Assembly: GCF_030013595.1 (NCBI RefSeq)
Contig: NZ_CP122768.1
Length of the DNA stretch: 64,000 bases
Origin: Escherichia coli
Lineage (GTDB): Bacteria; Pseudomonadota; Gammaproteobacteria; Enterobacterales; Enterobacteriaceae
Direction: 5' to 3' (one strand)
Each line of letters begins with the position of its first letter. Position 1 is the first letter of the stretch. Both the position numbers and the translations under genes were made by a program. Below are positions 6,972-64,000 of this stretch, piece by piece. A model generated the notes under the pieces. That model searched no databases. It was not told the origin of the DNA and worked only from the letters and a program-made list of their open reading frames with translations.

Positions 6972-7680
6972 AATAAATATCCTCCGGCATAGCCGGAGGT
7001 TTTTCAAATGCGCCTGTAAGGCTCTGTTACCAGCCGCGCCCTAACAGGCGCATACGATCTGACATTTGCATTCAACTTCGTTACTTACGGCCCGTAAACG
7101 GGCTGCCCGGATATGGAATCGATAACTGCTCCCCCATTTTATCCTCTTCAAGCTGGTGCTTTATGTAGTCCTGTATCTTCGCCGTGTTCTTACCCACCGT
7201 ATCGACATAGTACCCTCGGCACCAGAACTCCCTGTTTCTGTATTTGAATTTCAAATCCCCAAACTGCTCGTAAAGCATCAGACTGCTTTTCCCTTTCAGA
7301 TATCCCATAAAGCCGGATACGCTCATTTTGGGTGGGATTTCCACAAGCATATGGATATGATCTGCGCAGCACTCTGCTTCCAGAATCCGTACGCTTTTCC
7401 ACTCACACAGCTTTCTCAAAATACTGCCTATCGCCCTACGCTTCTCTCCGTAAAACGCCAGTCTTCGGTATTTCGGCGCAAAAACTATGTGATATTTACA
7501 GTTCCAGCGGGTGTGCGCTAAGCTCTTTTCGTCCCCCATTGGGACCCCCTTTTGATTTCTTGTTTGACACTTGCAGTTGCCAGACCGCAAGGTGTTTTAA
7601 CAAATCAAAAGGGGTTTTAATAACTGGCTCAAAGCTGAAAGCTTTCCGGAACCCCCAGCCTAGCTGGGGGTTTTCTGTGC
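6972..7680 (-). mobile_element. IS200 insertion sequence (IS200/IS605 family), about 707 bp; ends estimated to within roughly 10 bp
   Basis: Contains tnpA (7081-7539); subterminal hairpin 7652-7670 (cccccagc/gctggggg); stem-loop 7546-7614 pairing the Shine-Dalgarno sequence; hairpins 6981-6999 and 7008-7053 at the other end; rlmB-to-yjfI spacing is about 710 bp longer than I expect for the native intergenic region. Confidence 0.8.
7081..7539 (-). CDS. tnpA: IS200 transposase TnpA (Y1/HUH single-strand transposase), 152 aa
   Basis: ORF 7081..7590 trimmed to ATG at 7539 (MGDEKSLAHTRWNCKYHIVFAPKYRR...HIHMLVEIPPK...); HxH motif and catalytic Tyr region recognisable. Confidence 0.9.
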   Translation of the reverse strand: MGDEKSLAHTRWNCKYHIVFAPKYRRLAFYGEKRRAIGSILRKLCEWKSVRILEAECCADHIHMLVEIPPKMSVSGFMGYLKGKSSLMLYEQFGDLKFKYRNREFWCRGYYVDTVGKNTAKIQDYIKHQLEEDKMGEQLSIPYPGSPFTGRK

Positions 7681-17444: not shown

Positions 17445-18395
17445 TCAGCCTGCGATAGCACCAACAACCTGTAATACTTCGTCACGCGCTTGTTCTGGTT
17501 TTTCACTGCCAAGCCAGTGAACCCCTTCCCAACCACGCAGCCAGGTTATCTGCCGCTTCGCCAACTGTCTCGTGGCGCAAACACCTCGATAAACCATTTC
17601 ATCGTATGAGATTTCGCCTTCAAGGTAAGACCACATCTGGCGATAACCCACGCAACGAATGGAAGGCAAGTCCGTATGCAAATCTCCTCGGGCAAAAAGC
17701 GCCCGGACTTCTGCTTCAAAACCTGAAGCCAACATCTGATGAAAACGCTGCTCAATTCGTTGATGGAGCAGTTCACGGCTCGCCGGGGCGATGGCGAACT
17801 GATGCACCTGATACGGTAGAGCGTCTCCTGACGTTTGCGTCAGTTCCGTTAAAGTTTTACCCGAAATGAAAAAAACTTCCAGTGCCCGGGAAAGCCTTTG
17901 TGGATCATTTGGATGAATCCTTGCTGCCGCAACCGGATCGATCTCCTGAAGTTGACGATGCAATGACTCCCAACCTTGCTCTGCCGCCTGTTGCTCAATT
18001 CTGGCCCGCACTTCCGGGTCTGCCGACGGTAGCGGCGACAACCCTTCCAGCAATGCCTTGAAATACAACATCGTACCGCCCACTAACAGTGGGATCCGCC
18101 CCGCCGCGGTGATATCGGCCATTTCCGCCAGCGCATCGCGGCGAAAATCAGCAGCCGAGTAAGCCTGCGACGGATCGCGAATATCCAGCAATCGGTGCGG
18201 CGCGGCGAGTAACTCTTCAGCGTTCGGCTTCGCCGTCCCGATATCCATCCCTTTGTAAATAAGGGCAGAATCAACGCTTATCAACTCTACTGGTAAAATT
18301 TTACGCAGCTCAATGGCTAACGCCGTTTTACCGGAGGCCGTCGGCCCCATCAAAAAAATCGCCTTAGGCAGGCTCGCCTTACTGATATCACTCAT
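17445..18395 (-). CDS. miaA: tRNA dimethylallyltransferase MiaA, 316 aa
   Basis: Intact ORF; P-loop GPTASGKT; start overlaps mutL stop. Confidence 0.95.
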
Positions 18396-20235
18396 CTTTC
18401 AGGGCTTTTATCGCCGGATGTAAATCAACAGATTGTAACAGACCACCCGGCGGCGTTTTCACAAGTTGCGGACATAACCGTTCCACGTCCGCCAGCAGGG
18501 TTATGGCCTGTGCCATTGACCACTGCACATGTTCGCTCATCAGATTTCGTGCAATCCACTGCGCAATATTGCCAGGTTCGAATACGGACTGCTTCGCCAG
18601 GTAGCCTATCAGTTCAGGAATCAAGATTTGTAAATTTTGTTGGCGTAAGGGTAAAGGCACGGCCCTGATGGTCACATGCTGCGCATCGGACTGGAAATCA
18701 ATACCCAATTCCGCCAGGGCAGACTGCGCTTTTTCTAATGCCGATTTTTCTTCGCCAGAAACTTTTAGCCGCAGCGGAATCAGCAACGGCTGGGCGCAAA
18801 CTGGCGCTTCACCCGGCGTCAGTTGCGCCTGACGCAGCCAGCGTTCTGCCACTGGCAAGGCTAAAAGTGAAATGTTGCCGTCGCGCTCCAGCAACGCACA
18901 GTCGGAATGGACGATAGTCAGTACCCGACCAAAGCTTTGACTGTTTGCCGCAAGTGCAGGTTCCTGCGGTTCTGGCGCTTTTGGTTTTTGCATCGGCGCG
19001 GGCGTTTGCAAAAGCTGGCGATACACTTCACCTTGCTGTTTCTGGTAACCTGGCTGCGCATTCGGCCAAGGGGCAGCCGGACGACTGCCTGAGGCGGGCG
19101 CAGGAGTGTAACGCGGAGCTACTGGCTCACGAACTGCCGGTTCAGCAAAATGATTGCGCCCCGCCGCCACGCGGTTTTCCGGGATGGCGCGCGGTGCAGG
19201 TTGTGGTTCATCGTCCAGCGGTAGCGGCGTTTCCAGTTGCTGTTGTAGCACGCTCAGCACGCCCTGATAGATAAAATCATGCACCAGACGCGACTGATGG
19301 AAACGCACTTCGTGTTTGGCAGGGTGCACGTTGACGTCCACCTGATGTGGGTCGATCTCCAGATACAGCACAAATGCCGGTTGCTGATCGGCCCCCAGTT
19401 TGTCTTCACAGGCCTGGCGGATCGCGTGATTGATCAGGCGATCGCGCATCATGCGACCATTCACATAGCAATACTGAATTTCCGCCAGTGCGGGCGTGGT
19501 GTGATTCGGATCTGCCACCCAGCCGCGCAGCGTAAGATCGCCGTGTTGCCATTCAATCGCCAGCGCTTGTTCGAGAAAAGCGGTGCCGCAAATCGCGCCT
19601 AAGCGCCGTTCTTTTTGCCCGCCTTCCGGCACTGCGCGGTACTGACGCACAATTTTACCGTTATGCGACAGGTTGATCGTGACGTCGAAACGCGCCAGCG
19701 CAATGCGGCGAATAATTTCATCGATATGGTTAAATTCGGTTTTCTCGGTGCGCAGGAATTTGCGCCGCGCCGGGGTGTTGTAGAACAGATCCAGCACCTC
19801 CAGCGTCGTTCCCACCGGATGCGCCGCCGGTTTAACCGTTACGTCCATATCGCGCCCTTCGGCATAGGCCTGCCAGGCTTCCTGCTGTTCTGCGATGCGT
19901 GAAGTGAGCGTCAGGCGCGAAACCGAACTGATACTCGCCAGCGCCTCACCGCGAAAGCCAAGGCTGATAATGGCTTCGAGATCGTCCAGAGAGGCGATTT
20001 TACTGGTGGCATGACGAGCCAGCGCCAGCGCCAGCTCATCTTTTTTGATACCGCAGCCGTTATCACGAATGCGGATAAGTTTCGCCCCACCGCGTTCGAT
20101 ATCAATATCGATACGCGTCGCACCTGCATCGAGGCTGTTTTCCACCAGTTCTTTGACTACCGACGCAGGTCGCTCGACCACCTCACCTGCGGCAATCTGG
20201 TTCGCCAGTTGTGGCGGTAAGACCTGAATTGGCAT
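18388..20235 (-). CDS. mutL: DNA mismatch repair protein MutL, 615 aa
   Basis: ORF 18388..20238 trimmed to ATG at 20235 ([23 protein letters not shown]...); GHKL ATPase motifs. Confidence 0.95.
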
Positions 20236-20244
20236 CAATCGTCC

Positions 20245-21582
20245 TTAGTTTGGCAGCGTGCGATCTGGCGTCGTCACCGTACTGGCAGTTTGTGCCGTTG
20301 CACCCTGCGGCGCAGATTGCATCGGATGCGCAAGGAAATAATTACGCAGGCCTTTGTAAATGGCTTCTGCCAGCTGTTGTTGGTAATCGTCGCTCGCCAG
20401 CAAACGTTCTTCGCTGTTGTTGCTGATAAAACCGGTTTCGACCAGTACTGATGGGATATCCGGCGAACGCAGAACGCCAAGGCTGGCGTGTTCTGGTCGA
20501 CGTTTATGTATTTCGCCAATGCGTTGCAACTGGCTGATCATACTGGTCGCTACATCATACCCTACACGCTGGGAATGACCGAACTGTAAATCCAGCACCG
20601 CCTGGCTTAAATAGGGGTCAGACTGGCTGTTCGCCAGCACATCGCCCGCTCCGCCCAATAGCTCCGACTGTTTCTCATGCTGTTCCAGCCAGCTTGCCAT
20701 CTCGCTGTTTGCACGACGGTTAGAGAGCACCCATACGGAAGCGCCAGTCGCACTGCGGTTCGGTGCGGCATCAGCGTGAATCGACACGAGGAAATTGGCG
20801 TTTTGCTTACGTGCCACATCGCTGCGCCCCATCACCGAAATAAAGTAATCCCCATCACGAGTTAAAACGCCTTTAAACATCGGATCGTCATTGAGCAAGG
20901 TACGTAATTTACGCGCAATGGCGATGGTGACATTTTTCTCCCGCGTACCGCCGGGGCCGATAGCGCCAGGATCCTGACCGCCGTGTCCGGCATCAATAGC
21001 GATGATAATTTTATCGCCAGTGTTAGCCGTCGCGCGCGCTGCCGGACGCGTTACCGTATTACTGCTGATAACCCCCGTAGTGCGGTTACTTTCGGTTTTA
21101 AACGGATTGCGCGCCGGTTCGCTGACGCGCGGTGCGACAACCGCAGGTGTTTCAACGCGTTTCGCAACCACGGGCGGCGGAGGAGGCGGTGGCGGCGCAT
21201 CGGCGTTAATCGTAAAGACGACAGTGTAATTGCTGCCATTCTGCCGCTTCACCGCTTCGGTTTTACCATTTTCGGTAAGCTCGACCACCAGCCGTAGCGT
21301 TTGTGCATCTTTAGGCGTTCCAGAGCGAATCGCCTTCACCAGATTATTGCCGCTGAACAACAATGGCAGTCCCTGAATCACGCCCGTTTGTTTGATATCG
21401 AGCGCCACGGTGCGTTTGCTTTGATGGCTAAACGCATAATCAGGATCGCCAATAAAACTCAACGTTATCCGCGCCTGTTGGTTGCCGTTAGAAACCTGAA
21501 TATCAGAGAGCGTCGCGGCGCCCACCTGCGCGCACAGCAGCAGCAACGTCGCTACCAACCAATTTCTGATGCGATACATCAT
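20245..21582 (-). CDS. amiB: N-acetylmuramoyl-L-alanine amidase AmiB, 445 aa
   Basis: ORF 20245..21597 trimmed to ATG at 21582 ([19 protein letters not shown]...); signal peptide; eight consecutive Pro codons at 21172-21195. Confidence 0.9.
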
Positions 21583-24988: not shown

Positions 24989-25064
<76 letters not shown>

Positions 25065-25099
25065 TTGGGTGGTCTGTGCTTTACAGCACTTTCAAATTT

Positions 25100-25175
<76 letters not shown>

Positions 25176-25332
25176 TTAATCTTCGTCTTTCGAACCGCTA
25201 CTGCCTTGGCTGCCTTCACTCACCTTAGTCACTTACTTTTGTAAGCTCCCAAGGATTCGTTCAGTTGCCGCCTTGTCGCAATTCGAAATACTGCGATTGG
25301 GTGGTCTGTGCTTTGCAGCACTTTTCAAATTT

Positions 25333-25408
<76 letters not shown>

Positions 25409-42873: not shown

Positions 42874-43107
42874 CTGATTAAACAGGGAAGTTTAATCTTT
42901 GCACGTTGCATAACCTTTAATTATTCATATACATTGCTGTTATTACTTTTTATATAACCAACACCAATAATTAACCTTTCTTTTCTGTTTATATAGAGTG
43001 AGCACGGCTATTTATGTTATTTTAACAACTATTACTACCAAGCCCATTTATCTGGCTTATAAATTAAAATTAATTATTTAATTGAGAAATGGTTAGGGAG
43101 AACCTAC

Positions 43108-54561: not shown

Positions 54562-54637
54562 GCCCGGATAGCTCAGTCGGTAGAGCAGGGGATTGAAAAT
54601 CCCCGTGTCCTTGGTTCGATTCCGAGTCCGGGCACCA
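54562..54637 (+). tRNA. pheU: tRNA-Phe (GAA)
   Basis: gcccggatagctcagtcggtagagcaggggattgaaaatccccgtgtccttggttcgattccgagtccgggcacca, 76 nt, followed by hairpin ggacctcc/ggaggtcc plus TTTTT at 54653-54678. Confidence 0.95.
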
Positions 54638-54834
54638 AATTCATATCAACGGACCTCCACGGAGGTCCGTTTTTCGTTTCAGAACACCATGATTTAAGTG
54701 TTCTTCCTCCAAATCAATTCTACCGAACTCAACCAAATTCTCCCCACATCAACCTCATTGTGTGGGTATAATTGCGGGTATACCCCAGTTCGACAGAATT
54801 TGTACCCTCTTTAACGCATTCAGAAGGCTGAACT

Positions 54835-56097
54835 ATGGCACTGACTGACGCAAAAATCCGGGCTGCAAAGCCCACTGACAAGGCTTATAAACTCACTGAC
54901 GGGGCCGGCATGTTCCTGCTGGTTCATCCTAATGGTTCCCGTTACTGGCGTCTCCGTTATCGTATTCTGGGTAAGGAGAAGACTCTGGCACTTGGTGTGT
55001 ATCCGGAAGTTTCTCTCTCCGAAGCTCGTACAAAACGGGATGAGGCCCGAAAACTGATTTCAGAGGGGATTGACCCTTGCGAACAGAAAAGAGTTAAAAA
55101 AGTTGTCCCTGATTTACAGCTCTCTTTTGAACATATTGCACGACGCTGGCATGCCAGTAATAAACAATGGGCACAATCACACAGCGATAAAGTACTCAAA
55201 AGCCTCGAGACACACGTTTTCCCCTTTATCGGCAACCGGGATATCACAACACTCAATACCCCGGACCTGCTTATCCCTGTTCGTGCTGCAGAAGCAAAAC
55301 AAATTTATGAAATCGCCAGTCGTCTGCAGCAAAGAATATCTGCTGTAATGCGTTATGCCGTACAGTCTGGCATCATCAGATATAACCCGGCTCTGGATAT
55401 GGCTGGTGCATTGACCACGGTAAAACGCCAGCATCGCCCTGCTCTGGATCTTTCACGCCTGCCTGAACTTCTGTCGCGTATTGACGGTTATAAAGGCCAG
55501 CCTGTCACCCGACTGGCAGTTATGCTGAATTTACTGGTTTTTATTCGTTCCAGTGAACTCAGATATGCCCGCTGGTCTGAAATTGATATTGACAATGCCA
55601 TGTGGACTATTCCAGCCGAACGCGAACCTCTGCCAGGCGTAAAATTTTCATACCGGGGCTCCAAGATGCGAACACCACATCTTGTGCCACTCAGCCAACA
55701 GGCTGTAGCCATACTGGCAGAACTTCAGACATGGGCAGGTGAAAATGGTCTGATCTTTACGGGAGCACATGACCCACGTAAACCAATCAGTGAAAACACC
55801 GTAAATAAAGCCCTGAGGGTTATGGGGTATGACACAACCCAGGATGTCTGTGGTCATGGATTCCGGGCGATGGCATGTAGTGCATTAATAGAATCAGGTT
55901 TGTGGTCCCGCGATGCTGTGGAACGCCAGATGAGCCATCAGGAGCGTAATGGTGTACGTGCTGCGTATATCCATAAAGCCGAACATCTGGAAGAACGTCG
56001 ACTTATGCTACAGTGGTGGGCAGATTTTCTGGATGCGAACAGAGAACAATGTATCAGCCCGTTTGAATATGCAAAGATTAACAATCCATTAAAATAG
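54835..56097 (+). CDS. int: P4-type tyrosine integrase of a tRNA-Phe-associated island, 420 aa
   Basis: Intact ORF (MALTDAKIRAAKPTDKAYKLTDGAGMFLLVHPNGSRYWRLRYRILGKEKTLALGVYPEVSLSEARTKRDEARK...) with C-terminal catalytic region (HGFRAMA...RLMLQWW); sits directly 3' of a tRNA. Confidence 0.85.
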   Translation: MALTDAKIRAAKPTDKAYKLTDGAGMFLLVHPNGSRYWRLRYRILGKEKTLALGVYPEVSLSEARTKRDEARKLISEGIDPCEQKRVKKVVPDLQLSFEHIARRWHASNKQWAQSHSDKVLKSLETHVFPFIGNRDITTLNTPDLLIPVRAAEAKQIYEIASRLQQRISAVMRYAVQSGIIRYNPALDMAGALTTVKRQHRPALDLSRLPELLSRIDGYKGQPVTRLAVMLNLLVFIRSSELRYARWSEIDIDNAMWTIPAEREPLPGVKFSYRGSKMRTPHLVPLSQQAVAILAELQTWAGENGLIFTGAHDPRKPISENTVNKALRVMGYDTTQDVCGHGFRAMACSALIESGLWSRDAVERQMSHQERNGVRAAYIHKAEHLEERRLMLQWWADFLDANREQCISPFEYAKINNPLK

Positions 56098-56282
56098 TAA
56101 TCATCCCGGGCAGCTAGCCCGGGAATTATTTTCTGAATATTTTTCTTTGTGAGTAACTGGAAAAAGGATAGCGAAGTAAATTACTTTAATGAATTATTCC
56201 AGGGGCTCATTAAAGTTCTTTCGTAATACTTTGTAGTCAAACACGTTATGGCTGGCATCAAAAACCAGGTAATGACTCCAAC

Positions 56283-56780
56283 TTATTGATAGTGTTTTAT
56301 GTTCAGATAATGCCCGATGACCTTGTCATGCAGCTCCACCGATTTTGAGAACGACAGTGACTTCCGTCCCAGCCTTGCCAGATGTTGTCTCAGATTATGT
56401 CGCTCAATGCGCTGAGTGTAACGCTTGCTGATAACGTGCAGCTTTCCCTTCAGGCGTGATTCATACAGCGGCCAGCCATCCGTCATCTATACCACGACCT
56501 CAAAGGCCGACAGCAGGCTCAGAATACGCTCCAGTGTGGCCAGAGTGCGTTCACCGAAGACGTGCGCCACAACCGTCCTCCGTATCCTGTCATACGCGTA
56601 AAACAGCCAGCGCTGACGTGATTTAGCACCGACGTAGCCCCACTGTTCGTCCATTTCAGCGCAGACAATCACATCACTGCCCGGTTGTATGCGCGAGGTT
56701 ACCGACTGCGGCCTGAGTTTTTTAAGTGACGTAAAACCGTGTTGAGGCCAACGCCCATAATGCGTGCACTGGCGCGACAT
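56283..56780 (-). pseudogene. insB: IS1 insB disrupted by an in-frame TAG stop; also appears to carry a 6-bp in-frame deletion
   Basis: Two ORF-track fragments (56487..56780 and 56283..56486) are separated only by TAG at 56487-56489 where canonical InsB has Trp (..VVIWMTDGW..); fragment 2 lacks two residues relative to my recollection of InsB (HNLNLRQ vs HNLRQ here). Confidence 0.7.
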
Positions 56781-56974
56781 CCGACGCCATTCATGGCCAT
56801 ATCAATGATTTTCTGGTGCTTACCGGGCTGAGAGGCGGTGTAAGTGAACTGTAGTTGCCATGTTTTACGGCAATGAGAGCAGAGATAGCGCTGATGTCCG
56901 GCAGTGCTTTTGCCGTTACGCACCACGCCTTCAGTAGCGGAGCAGGAAGGACATCTGATGGAAATGGAAGCCAC
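56699..56974 (-). CDS. insA: IS1 InsA (transposition inhibitor / N-terminal part of InsAB'), 91 aa
   Basis: GTG start; [42 protein letters not shown]... with Zn-finger Cys pairs. Confidence 0.9.
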
Positions 56975-57201
56975 GCAAGCACCTTAAAATCACCATCATA
57001 CACTAAATCAGTAAGTTGGCAGCATTACCGAAATCCCCATCCTTTAGGGCAGTGAGAATGTCAATAATAGCAGACCACATCATGAGTCATTTTGACCGAC
57101 ACATGCAGAAGCAGAGGCTCCATCCCATTTTATACCTACCCTATAACACTTAGAAAAACAACATGTTAAAAATGTCTATTGGAAACAATTTTATTTCCAA
57201 T

Positions 57202-57220
57202 TGTAATGATAACCATTCTC
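57202..57220 (+). promoter_or_regulatory. Fur box upstream of fecI
   Basis: tgtaatgataaccattctc matches the 19-bp Fur consensus GATAATGATAATCATTATC at 15 of 19 positions; about 45 bp upstream of fecI. Confidence 0.6.
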
Positions 57221-57264
57221 ATATTAATATGGCTACGTGATAATTAACTTTTGATGCACTCCGC

Positions 57265-57782
57265 ATGTCTGACCGCGCCACTACCACAGCTTCCTTAACG
57301 TTCGAGTCGCTTTATGGCACACATCACGGCTGGTTGAAAAGCTGGCTGACGCGCAAACTCCAGTCTGCTTTTGATGCAGATGACATTGCCCAGGACACTT
57401 TTTTGCGGGTAATGGTCAGCGAAACGCTCTCGACGATCCGCGATCCTCGCTCCTTCCTGTGCACTATCGCCAAACGCGTGATGGTGGACCTGTTTCGCCG
57501 AAACGCGCTGGAAAAAGCGTATCTGGAGATGCTGGCGCTTATGCCGGAGGGGGGAGCGCCTTCACCTGAGGAACGCGAAAGCCAACTCGAGACCCTACAA
57601 CTCCTCGACAGCATGCTGGACGGGCTAAACGGCAAAACACGTGAAGCGTTTCTGCTTTCGCAACTGGATGGTCTGACATACAGCGAGATTGCGCACAAAC
57701 TCGGTGTTTCCATCAGCTCCGTGAAAAAATACGTGGCGAAAGCCGTCGAGCACTGCCTGCTGTTCCGTCTGGAGTATGGGTT

Positions 57783-57786
<4 letters not shown>
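57265..57786 (+). CDS. fecI: ECF sigma factor FecI, 173 aa
   Basis: Intact ORF ([28 protein letters not shown]...). Confidence 0.95.
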
Positions 57787-61147
<3,361 letters not shown>

Positions 61148-61156
61148 TGTGTTAAC

Positions 61157-61177
61157 GCCCGGCTTGCCGGGCTTTTA
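61157..61177 (+). terminator. Hairpin between fecA and fecB (attenuator-like)
   Basis: cccggc / gccggg stem followed by a T-rich tract, between fecA stop and fecB start. Confidence 0.5.
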
Positions 61178-61191
61178 GCTGGAATGTGATT

Positions 61192-62094
61192 ATGTTGGCA
61201 TTTATCCGTTTTCTTTTTGCAGGCCTGCTGCTGGTGATCAGCCACGCCTTTGCCGCCACGGTTCAGGACGAACACGGCACGTTTACACTCGAAAAAACGC
61301 CACAACGGATTGTGGTGCTGGAACTCTCGTTCGCCGATGCGCTGGCCGCCGTGGACGTCAGCCCGATCGGTATTGCCGACGATAACGATGCAAAACGCAT
61401 CCTGCCCGAAGTGCGTGCGCACCTGAAACCGTGGCAGTCCGTCGGAACGCGCGCGCAGCCGAGCCTGGAAGCCATTGCCGCTCTGAAACCAGACCTGATC
61501 ATTGCCGACAGCAGTCGCCATGCGGGGGTTTACATCGCCTTGCAGCAAATCGCGCCGGTACTGCTGCTTAAGTCCCGCAACGAAACCTACGCTGAAAATT
61601 TGCAATCTGCGGCTATCATCGGCGAAATGGTGGGTAAAAAGCGAGAGATGCAGGCACGTCTGGAACAACATAAAGAGAGGATGGCGCAGTGGGCCAGCCA
61701 GCTTCCCAAAGGGACACGCGTGGCCTTTGGCACATCACGCGAACAGCAATTCAACCTGCATACTCAGGAGACCTGGACCGGCAGCGTGCTGGCCTCTCTG
61801 GGGCTGAACGTTCCCGCTGCGATGGCGGGTGCGTCCATGCCGTCCATCGGCCTGGAGCAACTGCTGGCGGTCAATCCTGCCTGGCTGCTGGTTGCCCACT
61901 ATCGCGAAGAGAGCATTGTTAAACGCTGGCAACAAGATCCGCTCTGGCAGATGTTAACCGCCGCGCAGAAGCAGCAGGTTGCTTCGGTCGACAGTAACAC
62001 CTGGGCGCGGATGCGCGGTATTTTTGCTGCAGAGCGTATTGCCGCTGACACGGTAAAAATCTTCCACCATCAGCCGCTTACCGTTGTGAAATGA
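61192..62094 (+). CDS. fecB: Periplasmic ferric-citrate binding protein FecB, 300 aa
   Basis: ORF 61186..62094 trimmed to ATG at 61192 (MLAFIRFLFAGLLLVISHAFAATVQDE...). Confidence 0.95.
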   Translation: MLAFIRFLFAGLLLVISHAFAATVQDEHGTFTLEKTPQRIVVLELSFADALAAVDVSPIGIADDNDAKRILPEVRAHLKPWQSVGTRAQPSLEAIAALKPDLIIADSSRHAGVYIALQQIAPVLLLKSRNETYAENLQSAAIIGEMVGKKREMQARLEQHKERMAQWASQLPKGTRVAFGTSREQQFNLHTQETWTGSVLASLGLNVPAAMAGASMPSIGLEQLLAVNPAWLLVAHYREESIVKRWQQDPLWQMLTAAQKQQVASVDSNTWARMRGIFAAERIAADTVKIFHHQPLTVVK

Positions 62095-63089
62095 CCGCGA
62101 TAAAACACCCGGTGCTGCTGTGGGGGCTTCCCGTTGCAGCACTTATTATTATTTTCTGGCTGAGTCTGTTTTGCTACTCGGCCATTCCTGTTTCCGGAGC
62201 AGATGCAACCCGCGCCCTGCTGCCTGGACACACGCCAACGCTACCAGAAGCGCTGGTGCAAAACCTTCGTTTGCCACGAAGCCTCGTCGCCGTTCTGATC
62301 GGCGCAAGCCTGGCGCTCGCGGGCACGCTGCTGCAAACCCTGACCCACAACCCAATGGCCTCTCCTTCACTGCTCGGCATTAACAGCGGCGCGGCGCTGG
62401 CTATGGCGCTTACCAGCGCGCTGAGTCCGACGCCGATTGCAGGCTATTCTCTGTCGTTCATCGCGGCATGCGGGGGCGGCGTGAGCTGGCTGCTGGTCAT
62501 GACCGCAGGAGGCGGATTTCGTCATACCCATGACAGAAACAAACTGATCCTCGCGGGTATCGCGCTGTCGGCCTTTTGTATGGGCCTTACCCGCATCACC
62601 CTGCTGCTGGCCGAAGATCATGCTTACGGCATCTTTTACTGGCTGGCAGGCGGAGTGTCCCACGCCCGCTGGCAGGATGTCTGGCAGCTCTTGCCGGTGG
62701 TGGTCACTGCAGTCCCTGTCGTGTTGCTGCTGGCGAATCAACTGAACCTGCTCAACCTCAGCGACAGCACCGCCCATACGCTGGGAGTGAACCTGACGAG
62801 GCTACGTTTGGTCATCAATATGTTAGTGCTGCTTCTGGTTGGTGCGTGCGTCAGCGTGGCAGGTCCGGTGGCATTTATCGGTCTGCTGGTGCCACATCTG
62901 GCGCGCTTCTGGGCAGGCTTCGATCAGCGCAACGTACTGCCAGTGAGCATGCTGCTGGGGGCCACGCTGATGCTGCTGGCAGATGTACTCGCACGCGCGC
63001 TGGCCTTCCCCGGAGATCTGCCCGCAGGCGCAGTGCTGGCGCTGATTGGCAGCCCTTGCTTTGTCTGGCTTGTGAGGAGGCGAGGATGA
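62091..63089 (+). CDS. fecC: Ferric-citrate ABC transporter permease FecC, 332 aa
   Basis: Intact ORF; ATGA overlap with fecB stop. Confidence 0.95.
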   Translation: MTAIKHPVLLWGLPVAALIIIFWLSLFCYSAIPVSGADATRALLPGHTPTLPEALVQNLRLPRSLVAVLIGASLALAGTLLQTLTHNPMASPSLLGINSGAALAMALTSALSPTPIAGYSLSFIAACGGGVSWLLVMTAGGGFRHTHDRNKLILAGIALSAFCMGLTRITLLLAEDHAYGIFYWLAGGVSHARWQDVWQLLPVVVTAVPVVLLLANQLNLLNLSDSTAHTLGVNLTRLRLVINMLVLLLVGACVSVAGPVAFIGLLVPHLARFWAGFDQRNVLPVSMLLGATLMLLADVLARALAFPGDLPAGAVLALIGSPCFVWLVRRRG

Positions 63090-64000
63090 AAATTGCGCTG
63101 GTTATTTTCATCACCCTTGCCCTGGCGGGCTGTGCGCTGTTATCACTCCATATGGGAGTGATCCCCGTGCCGTGGCGCGCGCTGCTGACCGACTGGCAGG
63201 CCGGACGCGAGCATTATTATGTATTGATGGAGTACCGACTGCCGCGCTTGCTGCTGGCACTGTTTGTCGGTGCAGCCCTCGCCGTGGCGGGTGTGCTGAT
63301 ACAGGGGATTGTGCGCAACCCTCTGGCATCACCGGATATTCTCGGCGTTAACCATGCCGCCAGCCTGGTCTCTGTGGGGGCTCTACTTCTTATGCCGTCA
63401 CTGCCCGTGATGGTGCTGCCGCTGCTGGCCTTTGCGGGCGGCATGGCGGGGTTGATATTGCTGAAGATGCTGGCAAAGACCCACCAGCCGATGAAGCTGG
63501 CGCTCACCGGCGTGGCGCTTTCTGCATGCTGGGCCAGCCTGACGGATTATCTGATGCTCTCGCGCCCGCAGGATGTGAACAACGCCCTGCTGTGGCTGAC
63601 CGGCAGCTTATGGGGCCGTGACTGGAGCTTTGTGAAGATTGCCATCCCGCTGATGATTTTATTTCTGCCGCTGAGCCTGAGTTTTTGCCACGATCTCGAC
63701 CTCCTTGCACTCGGCGATGCGCGCGCCACCACGCTCGGTGTGTCGGTGCCCCATACCCGATTCTGGGCTTTGTTACTAGCTGTCGCCATGACATCTACCG
63801 GCGTGGCCGCCTGCGGCCCGATTAGCTTTATTGGTCTCGTGGTGCCGCATATGATGCGTAGCATCACCGGTGGACGTCACCGCAGACTGCTGCCTGTTTC
63901 GGCCCTGACAGGTGCGTTGCTGTTGGTGGTTGCCGATCTGCTGGCGAGAATTATTTATCCCCCACTGGAGCTCCCGGTTGGCGTGCTGACCGCCATTATC
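63086..64000 (+). CDS. fecD: Ferric-citrate ABC transporter permease FecD, partial (runs off window end)
   Basis: ATG at 63086 overlapping fecC stop; translates MKIALVIFITLALAGCALLSLHMGVIPVPW...; no stop before position 64000, so absent from the ORF track. Confidence 0.9.
   Translation, partial: MKIALVIFITLALAGCALLSLHMGVIPVPWRALLTDWQAGREHYYVLMEYRLPRLLLALFVGAALAVAGVLIQGIVRNPLASPDILGVNHAASLVSVGALLLMPSLPVMVLPLLAFAGGMAGLILLKMLAKTHQPMKLALTGVALSACWASLTDYLMLSRPQDVNNALLWLTGSLWGRDWSFVKIAIPLMILFLPLSLSFCHDLDLLALGDARATTLGVSVPHTRFWALLLAVAMTSTGVAACGPISFIGLVVPHMMRSITGGRHRRLLPVSALTGALLLVVADLLARIIYPPLELPVGVLTAII

Follow-up and report, generated by a model that had tools for sequence, protein, structure and literature searches.

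The hexanucleotide repeat in Escherichia coli mutL: unit number, purity and codon usage

A short tandem repeat inside a mismatch-repair gene raises two questions, namely which of its alleles a given strain carries and whether the repeat is kept as a switch of the mutation rate or is simply what appears when a required peptide is written in the codons that the genome favours. We considered both questions for a (GCCAGC)x3 tract in mutL of E. coli contig NZ_CP122768.1, within a stretch of 64,000 nucleotides that was analysed as a whole and that we call the window. The existence of a repeat hotspot in mutL and its interpretation in terms of mutators are already published. Our reading, in which we place high confidence, is that the tract is an incidental slipped-strand hotspot in an essential part of mutL, and that the window carries the normal functional three-unit allele.

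The tract and its gene

The plus strand of the window reads GCCAGCGCCAGCGCCAGC at positions 20018 to 20035, a perfect (GCCAGC)x3, and Tandem Repeats Finder reports a tract at exactly these positions with a period of 6, 3.0 copies, and 100% matches. A preliminary description of this DNA had placed three perfect copies of the unit here, inside mutL, and the sequence, the repeat finder, and the identity of the gene all bear this out, the copy number of three included. Read on the coding strand (20018 to 20035, minus strand), the tract becomes (GCTGGC)x3 and covers nucleotides 201 to 218 of mutL, which is the position, “201-218”, given in Table 2 of Chen et al. in 2010 (PMC2955026). The minus-strand codons around it are GAG CTG GCG CTG GCG CTG GCT CGT, for E67 L68 A69 L70 A71 L72 A73 R74, so that the LALALA motif, described earlier as lying “near residue 70”, corresponds to codons L68 to A73 (CTG GCG CTG GCG CTG GCT; 20017 to 20034, minus strand). 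The preliminary description had also written the minus-strand unit as CTGGCG; the hexamer repeat stands, but the phase does not, as the exact reverse complement of GCCAGC is GCTGGC, of which CTGGCG is a rotation. GCT encodes A73 in the window, which limits the tract to 2 5/6 copies in the CTGGCG phase, while in strains with GCG at A73, such as O157:H7 and E. coli B, three copies are present in either phase. The question of phase was also treated by Chen et al. (PMC2955026).

Besides the mutL tract, no perfect irreducible hexamer repeat with three or more copies was found in the 64-kb window. Such tracts are expected 0.0033 times per window according to 300 dinucleotide-preserving shuffles and 0.004 times analytically (about 0.28 per 4.6-Mb genome), and codon-order shuffles of mutL give an expectation of 0.0006. 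The mutL tract is thus genuine, and random DNA would hardly produce it by chance. Once the peptide LALAL and the local codon-pair usage are given, the probability of the perfect core is about 0.03.

The host gene is a full-length mutL of 615 amino acids (18388 to 20235, minus strand) with no internal stops and with the three-unit, functional-type allele. Its product scores 1012 bits against the NCBIfam equivalog NF000948, whose cutoff is 701, which identifies it as the MutL orthologue, and TIGR00585 also matches. It contains the Pfam domains HATPase_c_3, DNA_mis_repair, and MutL_C, and over residues 1 to 339 it is almost identical to the solved LN40 fragment of E. coli MutL (PDB entries including 1BKN, 1B62, and 1B63); the first two of these domains, together with the homology to the solved LN40 structures, place it among the proteins with a GHKL ATPase N-terminal domain of the MutL/MLH type. 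Its upstream neighbours are amiB, tsaE, and nnr, its downstream neighbours miaA, hfq, and hflXKC, and the order amiB-mutL-miaA-hfq is as expected for mutL. In E. coli MutL, the ATP lid comprises residues 74 to 97 (PMC3724809), and LALALA therefore runs straight into the lid; in the window, codons 74 to 97 occupy positions 19945 to 20016 (minus strand), as computed from the CDS start at 20235. An AlphaFold2 model of residues 1 to 339, built from an alignment of 23 sequences, was set aside, its mean pLDDT being 46.6 and its values falling below 50 over residues 1 to 207, and the helix at residues 65 to 77 is only suggestive.

The mutL of the window is 100% identical to that of two pig-faecal isolates (for example, NZ_CM149870.1) and belongs to the class with GAT at D66 and GCT at A73, as in K-12. 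MutL carries one substitution, T114I, at a near-invariant residue; we rejected it as a notable change, given that Ile is found at this position in two other species and Val in two. The allele is thus the wild-type three-unit one, with nothing pointing to a repair defect, and three units in the window mean that the strain is not a mutL-repeat mutator.

Some further features of the window were observed along the way. In amiB (minus strand), a proline-codon repeat at 21173 to 21197 (Tandem Repeats Finder period 9, 2.8 copies) encodes PPPPPPPP; in strain 377323_2f, the stretch is two residues shorter (PPSPPP), which makes this another in-frame length polymorphism, adjoining mutL. Three tandem tRNA-Gly(GCC) genes between queG and orn (24989 to 25408) form an ordinary E. 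coli arrangement. About 703 bp of the window, between yjfI and rlmB (6978 to 7680), are missing from the near-identical genome NZ_CM149870.1; the segment has hairpin-like ends, and it holds an ORF of 169 amino acids (7081 to 7590, minus strand) with the IS200/IS605 TnpA-like motif HTRWNCKYHIVFAPKYRR, and by eye it is probably an IS200-family insertion. Between epmB and yjeJ, at 43036 to 43045, the window has an empty site where NZ_CM149870.1 carries a 1,329-bp ISVsa5 (IS4-like) insertion. Homology to the same genome stops at 54751, just past tRNA-Phe (54562 to 54637), beyond which the window shows an integrase-like ORF of 420 amino acids (54835 to 56097) and then ferric-citrate-like fecIRABC ORFs (57265 to 63089, named from their translations); NZ_CM149870.1 has only an integrase remnant beyond tRNA-Phe, followed by cadCBA. 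The region from 54562 to 64000 is probably a tRNA-Phe-associated island.

Published alleles and their phenotypes

The preliminary description stated that the gain or loss of one unit had been reported as a route to mutator alleles, and the literature supports this (PMC7523724, PMC9376063, PMC2955026, PMC5793043). A close case is that of the E. coli B LTEE (Shaver and Sniegowski 2003; Maddamsetti and Grant 2020, PMC7523724), in which the gene, the position, and the 6-bp unit are the same as in the window. In population Ara-2, a change from three to four units at 2,250 generations produced a mutator, and three units and a normal mutation rate had been restored by 42,250 generations, while in Ara-4, a change from three to two units also produced a mutator (PMC7523724). 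The unit is written there as CTGGCG or TGGCGC, and three units are the functional state, as in the window; the mutator alleles of the LTEE thus have four or two units, whereas the window has the unmutated allele with three. One difference is that E. coli B has GCG at A73 and a 20-bp periodic tract that is perfect in both phases, whereas the window and K-12 have GCT and a tract of 18 bp. In K-12 evolution lines, a deletion that reduces LALALA to LALA arose independently in two populations (PMC9376063), and the addition or removal of LA has been described as impairing ATP binding (Pillon 2013, as cited in PMC9376063).

In Salmonella, the tract of strain LT7 was described as a “genetic switch” (Gong 2007; Chen 2010, PMC2955026). 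It is also a (GCTGGC)x3 at nucleotides 201 to 218, encoding LALALA by the ATP lid, as in the window, albeit in another genus, and the loss of one unit yields a mutator that reverts spontaneously. In S. Typhimurium LT7 and LT2, the deleted form, 6bp-delta-mutL, interconverts with the wild type, and “locking” the tract with synonymous changes lowers population mutability, which Chen et al. read as evidence of a functional switch; the same authors found conversion to be undetectable in non-mutator wild-type strains (PMC2955026). Lastly, in NCTC86, Escherich's original strain, L68_A69del was found in every isolate tested, and the authors considered that the allele was probably gained during culture-collection passage (Desroches 2018, PMC5793043); its tract is the same as that of the window, but with two units rather than three.

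Unit number and purity within E. coli

The comparison of repeat number with other isolates that the preliminary description proposed was run on 5,426 complete RefSeq E. coli genomes, of which 5,425 have a mutL locus. The queries were synthetic four-unit and two-unit alleles, each with 40-bp native flanks, such that any other unit number forces a gap and lowers identity below 95%. Both queries agree on three units in 5,417 of the 5,425 genomes, two in seven records, and four in one, so that natural unit numbers are two, three, or four, with three as the overwhelming norm. Whole-unit variation was read at the sequence level in six of the seven two-unit records and in the four-unit record, and all the variants read directly are in frame and otherwise intact. 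In the same search, one of the 5,426 complete genomes gave no match to the mutL N-terminal region and may have a mutL deletion, and two matches to this region fell on records typed as plasmids.

Strain ST648 (NZ_CP008697.1), isolated from a pleural effusion, carries the four-unit allele. Two units are found in four records of NCTC86, in its derivative B-2207, in W137 (NZ_CP163067.1; urine), and in 377323_2f (NZ_CP039404.1; faeces). Sequence-level reading of B-2207 and of three NCTC86 records showed 0 to 1 differences over 5,092 bp, while the fourth NCTC86 record, LR217818, was assigned two units by a 100% match to the two-unit query only. W137 differs from NCTC86 by 4 to 5 bases over the same 5,092 bp, and 377323_2f has a clearly different background, with many differences in mutL. 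Two-unit alleles thus lie on at least three independent backgrounds; counted with the four-unit allele, the tract has contracted at least three times and expanded once in some 5,400 genomes. Unit-number variants are real but rare. W137, 377323_2f, and ST648, clinical or commensal isolates that all fall outside the NCTC86 family, are predicted from their alleles to be natural mismatch-repair mutators.

The purity of the tract was assayed with 30-mers ending exactly at a tract boundary, for which the 28-base exact word of megablast causes an internal SNP to lose the match. Upstream, the anchors with GAT and GAC at D66 were found in 2,941 and 1,859 genomes, respectively, for a sum of 4,800; downstream, those with GCT and GCG at A73 were found in 2,640 and 2,164, for a sum of 4,804. 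The low count of the first 30-mer (2,941) could have suggested widespread interruption, but this was rejected, as most of the shortfall corresponds to the GAT/GAC polymorphism at D66, which lies outside the tract. About 614 genomes are absent from both sums because of a synonymous change of A69 from GCG to GCA, counted in 574 genomes with its own upstream anchor; it is the sole real interruption class in the shortfall, and about 40 genomes fall in neither counted class. The perfect tract is therefore present in approximately 88.6% of E. coli genomes.

The interrupted allele, which we first met in strain MS16-3, reads GAG CTG GCA CTG GCG CTG GCG. It accounts for 10.6% of the complete genomes (574 of 5,425), including those of O25b:H4-ST131 such as EC958 (for example, NZ_HG941718.1). 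GCA at A69 (20029 to 20031 in the window) breaks the first repeat unit and leaves two perfect ones, making this a natural “semi-locked” allele, of which we found no mention in the literature searched. One could imagine that E. coli lineages differ heritably in the ease with which they turn into mismatch-repair mutators, with the perfect tract of 18 to 20 bp kept by second-order selection and GCA at A69, present also in pandemic ST131, acting as a natural “lock” that would measurably lower the rate of LA gain and loss, but we regard this as rather unlikely.

Conservation, codon pairs, and the origin of the tract

The proposal of Chen et al. in 2010 can be put more generally, as a contingency locus that toggles between low and high mutation rates and whose repeat is kept perfect by second-order selection. 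Such a reading draws support from the reversible changes in LTEE Ara-2 (PMC7523724) and Salmonella LT7 and from the lower mutability of locked alleles (PMC2955026). The presence of the perfect tract in most E. coli genomes and in many genera of Enterobacteriaceae also speaks in its favour. We aligned the mutL N-terminal region of 80 Enterobacteriaceae species representatives (81 sequences in the alignment). The peptide is LALALA in 79 of the 80 species and LSLALA in one, and all 80 have three units. At the DNA level, the core (CTG GCG CTG GCG CTG GC) is intact in 47 of the 81 sequences (about 58%), whereas independent codon draws would give about 5.6. Chen et al. reported the exact tract to be confined to Salmonella, Escherichia, and Shigella (PMC2955026), but the intact tract is also found in Citrobacter, Enterobacter, Klebsiella, Raoultella, Kosakonia, Lelliottia, Kluyvera, Buttiauxella, and Cedecea, and its taxonomic spread is thus wider than reported. 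Moreover, conservation of the five core codons exceeds that of the average invariant Leu or Ala codon (0.874 versus 0.618, P=0.0002 by column resampling), and the wobble base of A73, just outside the core, is free (0.47). This raised conservation could be taken as a sign of selection for the tract, but we dropped that interpretation after a matched Ala-Leu control and an examination of codon-pair statistics.

The matched control compares codons of the repeat with those of the same type elsewhere in mutL, as the modal-codon fraction over the 81 sequences. For Ala before Leu, the values are 0.89 (A69) and 0.93 (A71) in the repeat and 0.90 (A98), 0.91 (A179), and 0.81 (A224) outside it; for Leu after Ala, they are 0.80 (L70) and 0.79 (L72) in the repeat and 0.83 (L99), 0.84 (L180), and 0.86 (L225) outside it. 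The repeat codons are thus no better conserved than the non-repeat GCG-CTG pairs of the gene, in a control of 3 Ala and 3 to 4 Leu columns that ignores phylogeny. The codon-pair statistics, computed with the tract masked from the 18,409 codons of 57 validated genes in the window, point in the same direction. In these genes, GCG makes up 52.6% of Ala codons before Leu versus 36.2% overall (P=7.5e-7), and CTG makes up 72.0% of Leu codons before Ala versus 53.3% overall (P=1.9e-8). The window strongly favours GCG-CTG for Ala-Leu pairs and CTG-GCG for Leu-Ala pairs. The commonest hexamer of the window is GCTGGC/GCCAGC, with 165 occurrences on both strands together, and the second is CTGGCG/CGCCAG, with 153. 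Neither the matched mutL codons, a small control set, nor the codon-pair bias of the 57 genes revealed a repeat-specific selection signal.

Interruptions of the tract tell a similar story. Synonymous changes break the core in 34 of the 81 sequences (33 of the 80 species representatives; about 42%), and these, together with the 574 E. coli genomes with GCA at A69, show that the perfect tract is dispensable, even in a lineage as successful as ST131. Classical contingency loci are the phase-variable simple-sequence repeats of Haemophilus and Neisseria (Moxon). The mutL tract resembles them in being a tandem repeat in a coding sequence, subject to reversible slippage that switches a phenotype, but it differs from them in having only three units and in adding or removing LA in frame instead of turning the reading frame on and off. 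Two features expected of a contingency locus are missing from our data: in the small control set, the tract is not maintained beyond what coding and codon bias account for, and neither tract length nor a frameshifting unit points to a high switching rate, the tract having three in-frame units of 6 bp and variants appearing in 8 of 5,425 records, from about four lineages. The largest group of variants, that of NCTC86, was judged to have been acquired during subculture (PMC5793043), and conversion went undetected in non-mutator wild-type strains (PMC2955026). Taken together, the equal conservation of non-repeat GCG-CTG pairs and the codon-pair bias, which is genome-wide and explains the codon choice, make a selected switch improbable in our estimation. 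Still weaker is the idea that the repeat is a coincidence without mutational consequence and that the unit-number variants are sequencing or assembly errors, which might appeal to the shortness of a three-unit tract and the great rarity of variants but can hardly be credited when B-2207 and four NCTC86 records under separate labels share the two-unit allele, which was also published independently as L68_A69del (PMC5793043), when laboratory populations have repeatedly and independently gained or lost one unit and were measured to be mutators (PMC9376063, PMC7523724), and when 64 kb of DNA should contain only 0.003 perfect threefold hexamers.

We thus return to an incidental hotspot as the preferred reading. 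Its origin would lie in a strictly required peptide that is written in the Ala-Leu codon pair favoured by the genome, GCG-CTG, from which a perfect repeat would follow; codon-pair bias would account for the tract without any selection for the repeat itself. Slipped-strand misalignment is the standard mechanism for short tandem repeats. With three identical 6-bp units, the nascent and template strands may misalign by one unit at replication, with the in-frame gain or loss of Leu-Ala as the outcome. The change in length by two residues would presumably displace the ATP lid, and according to the literature, ATP binding would be impaired, mismatch repair abolished, and the mutation rate raised. 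Slippage could then also reverse the change.

What the present analysis adds is modest: a census of unit number in 5,425 genomes, the candidate mutators W137, 377323_2f, and ST648, an interrupted allele associated with ST131, a wider taxonomic spread of the intact tract, and an explanation based on codon pairs as opposed to a maintained switch. These additions leave the known picture of the mutL hotspot unchanged. The tract is one main, reversible route to hypermutability in populations of E. coli and Salmonella, and it bears on experimental evolution, on adaptation during chronic infection, and on the emergence of antibiotic resistance. The by-products of the work may help in the typing of mutator risk from genome data.
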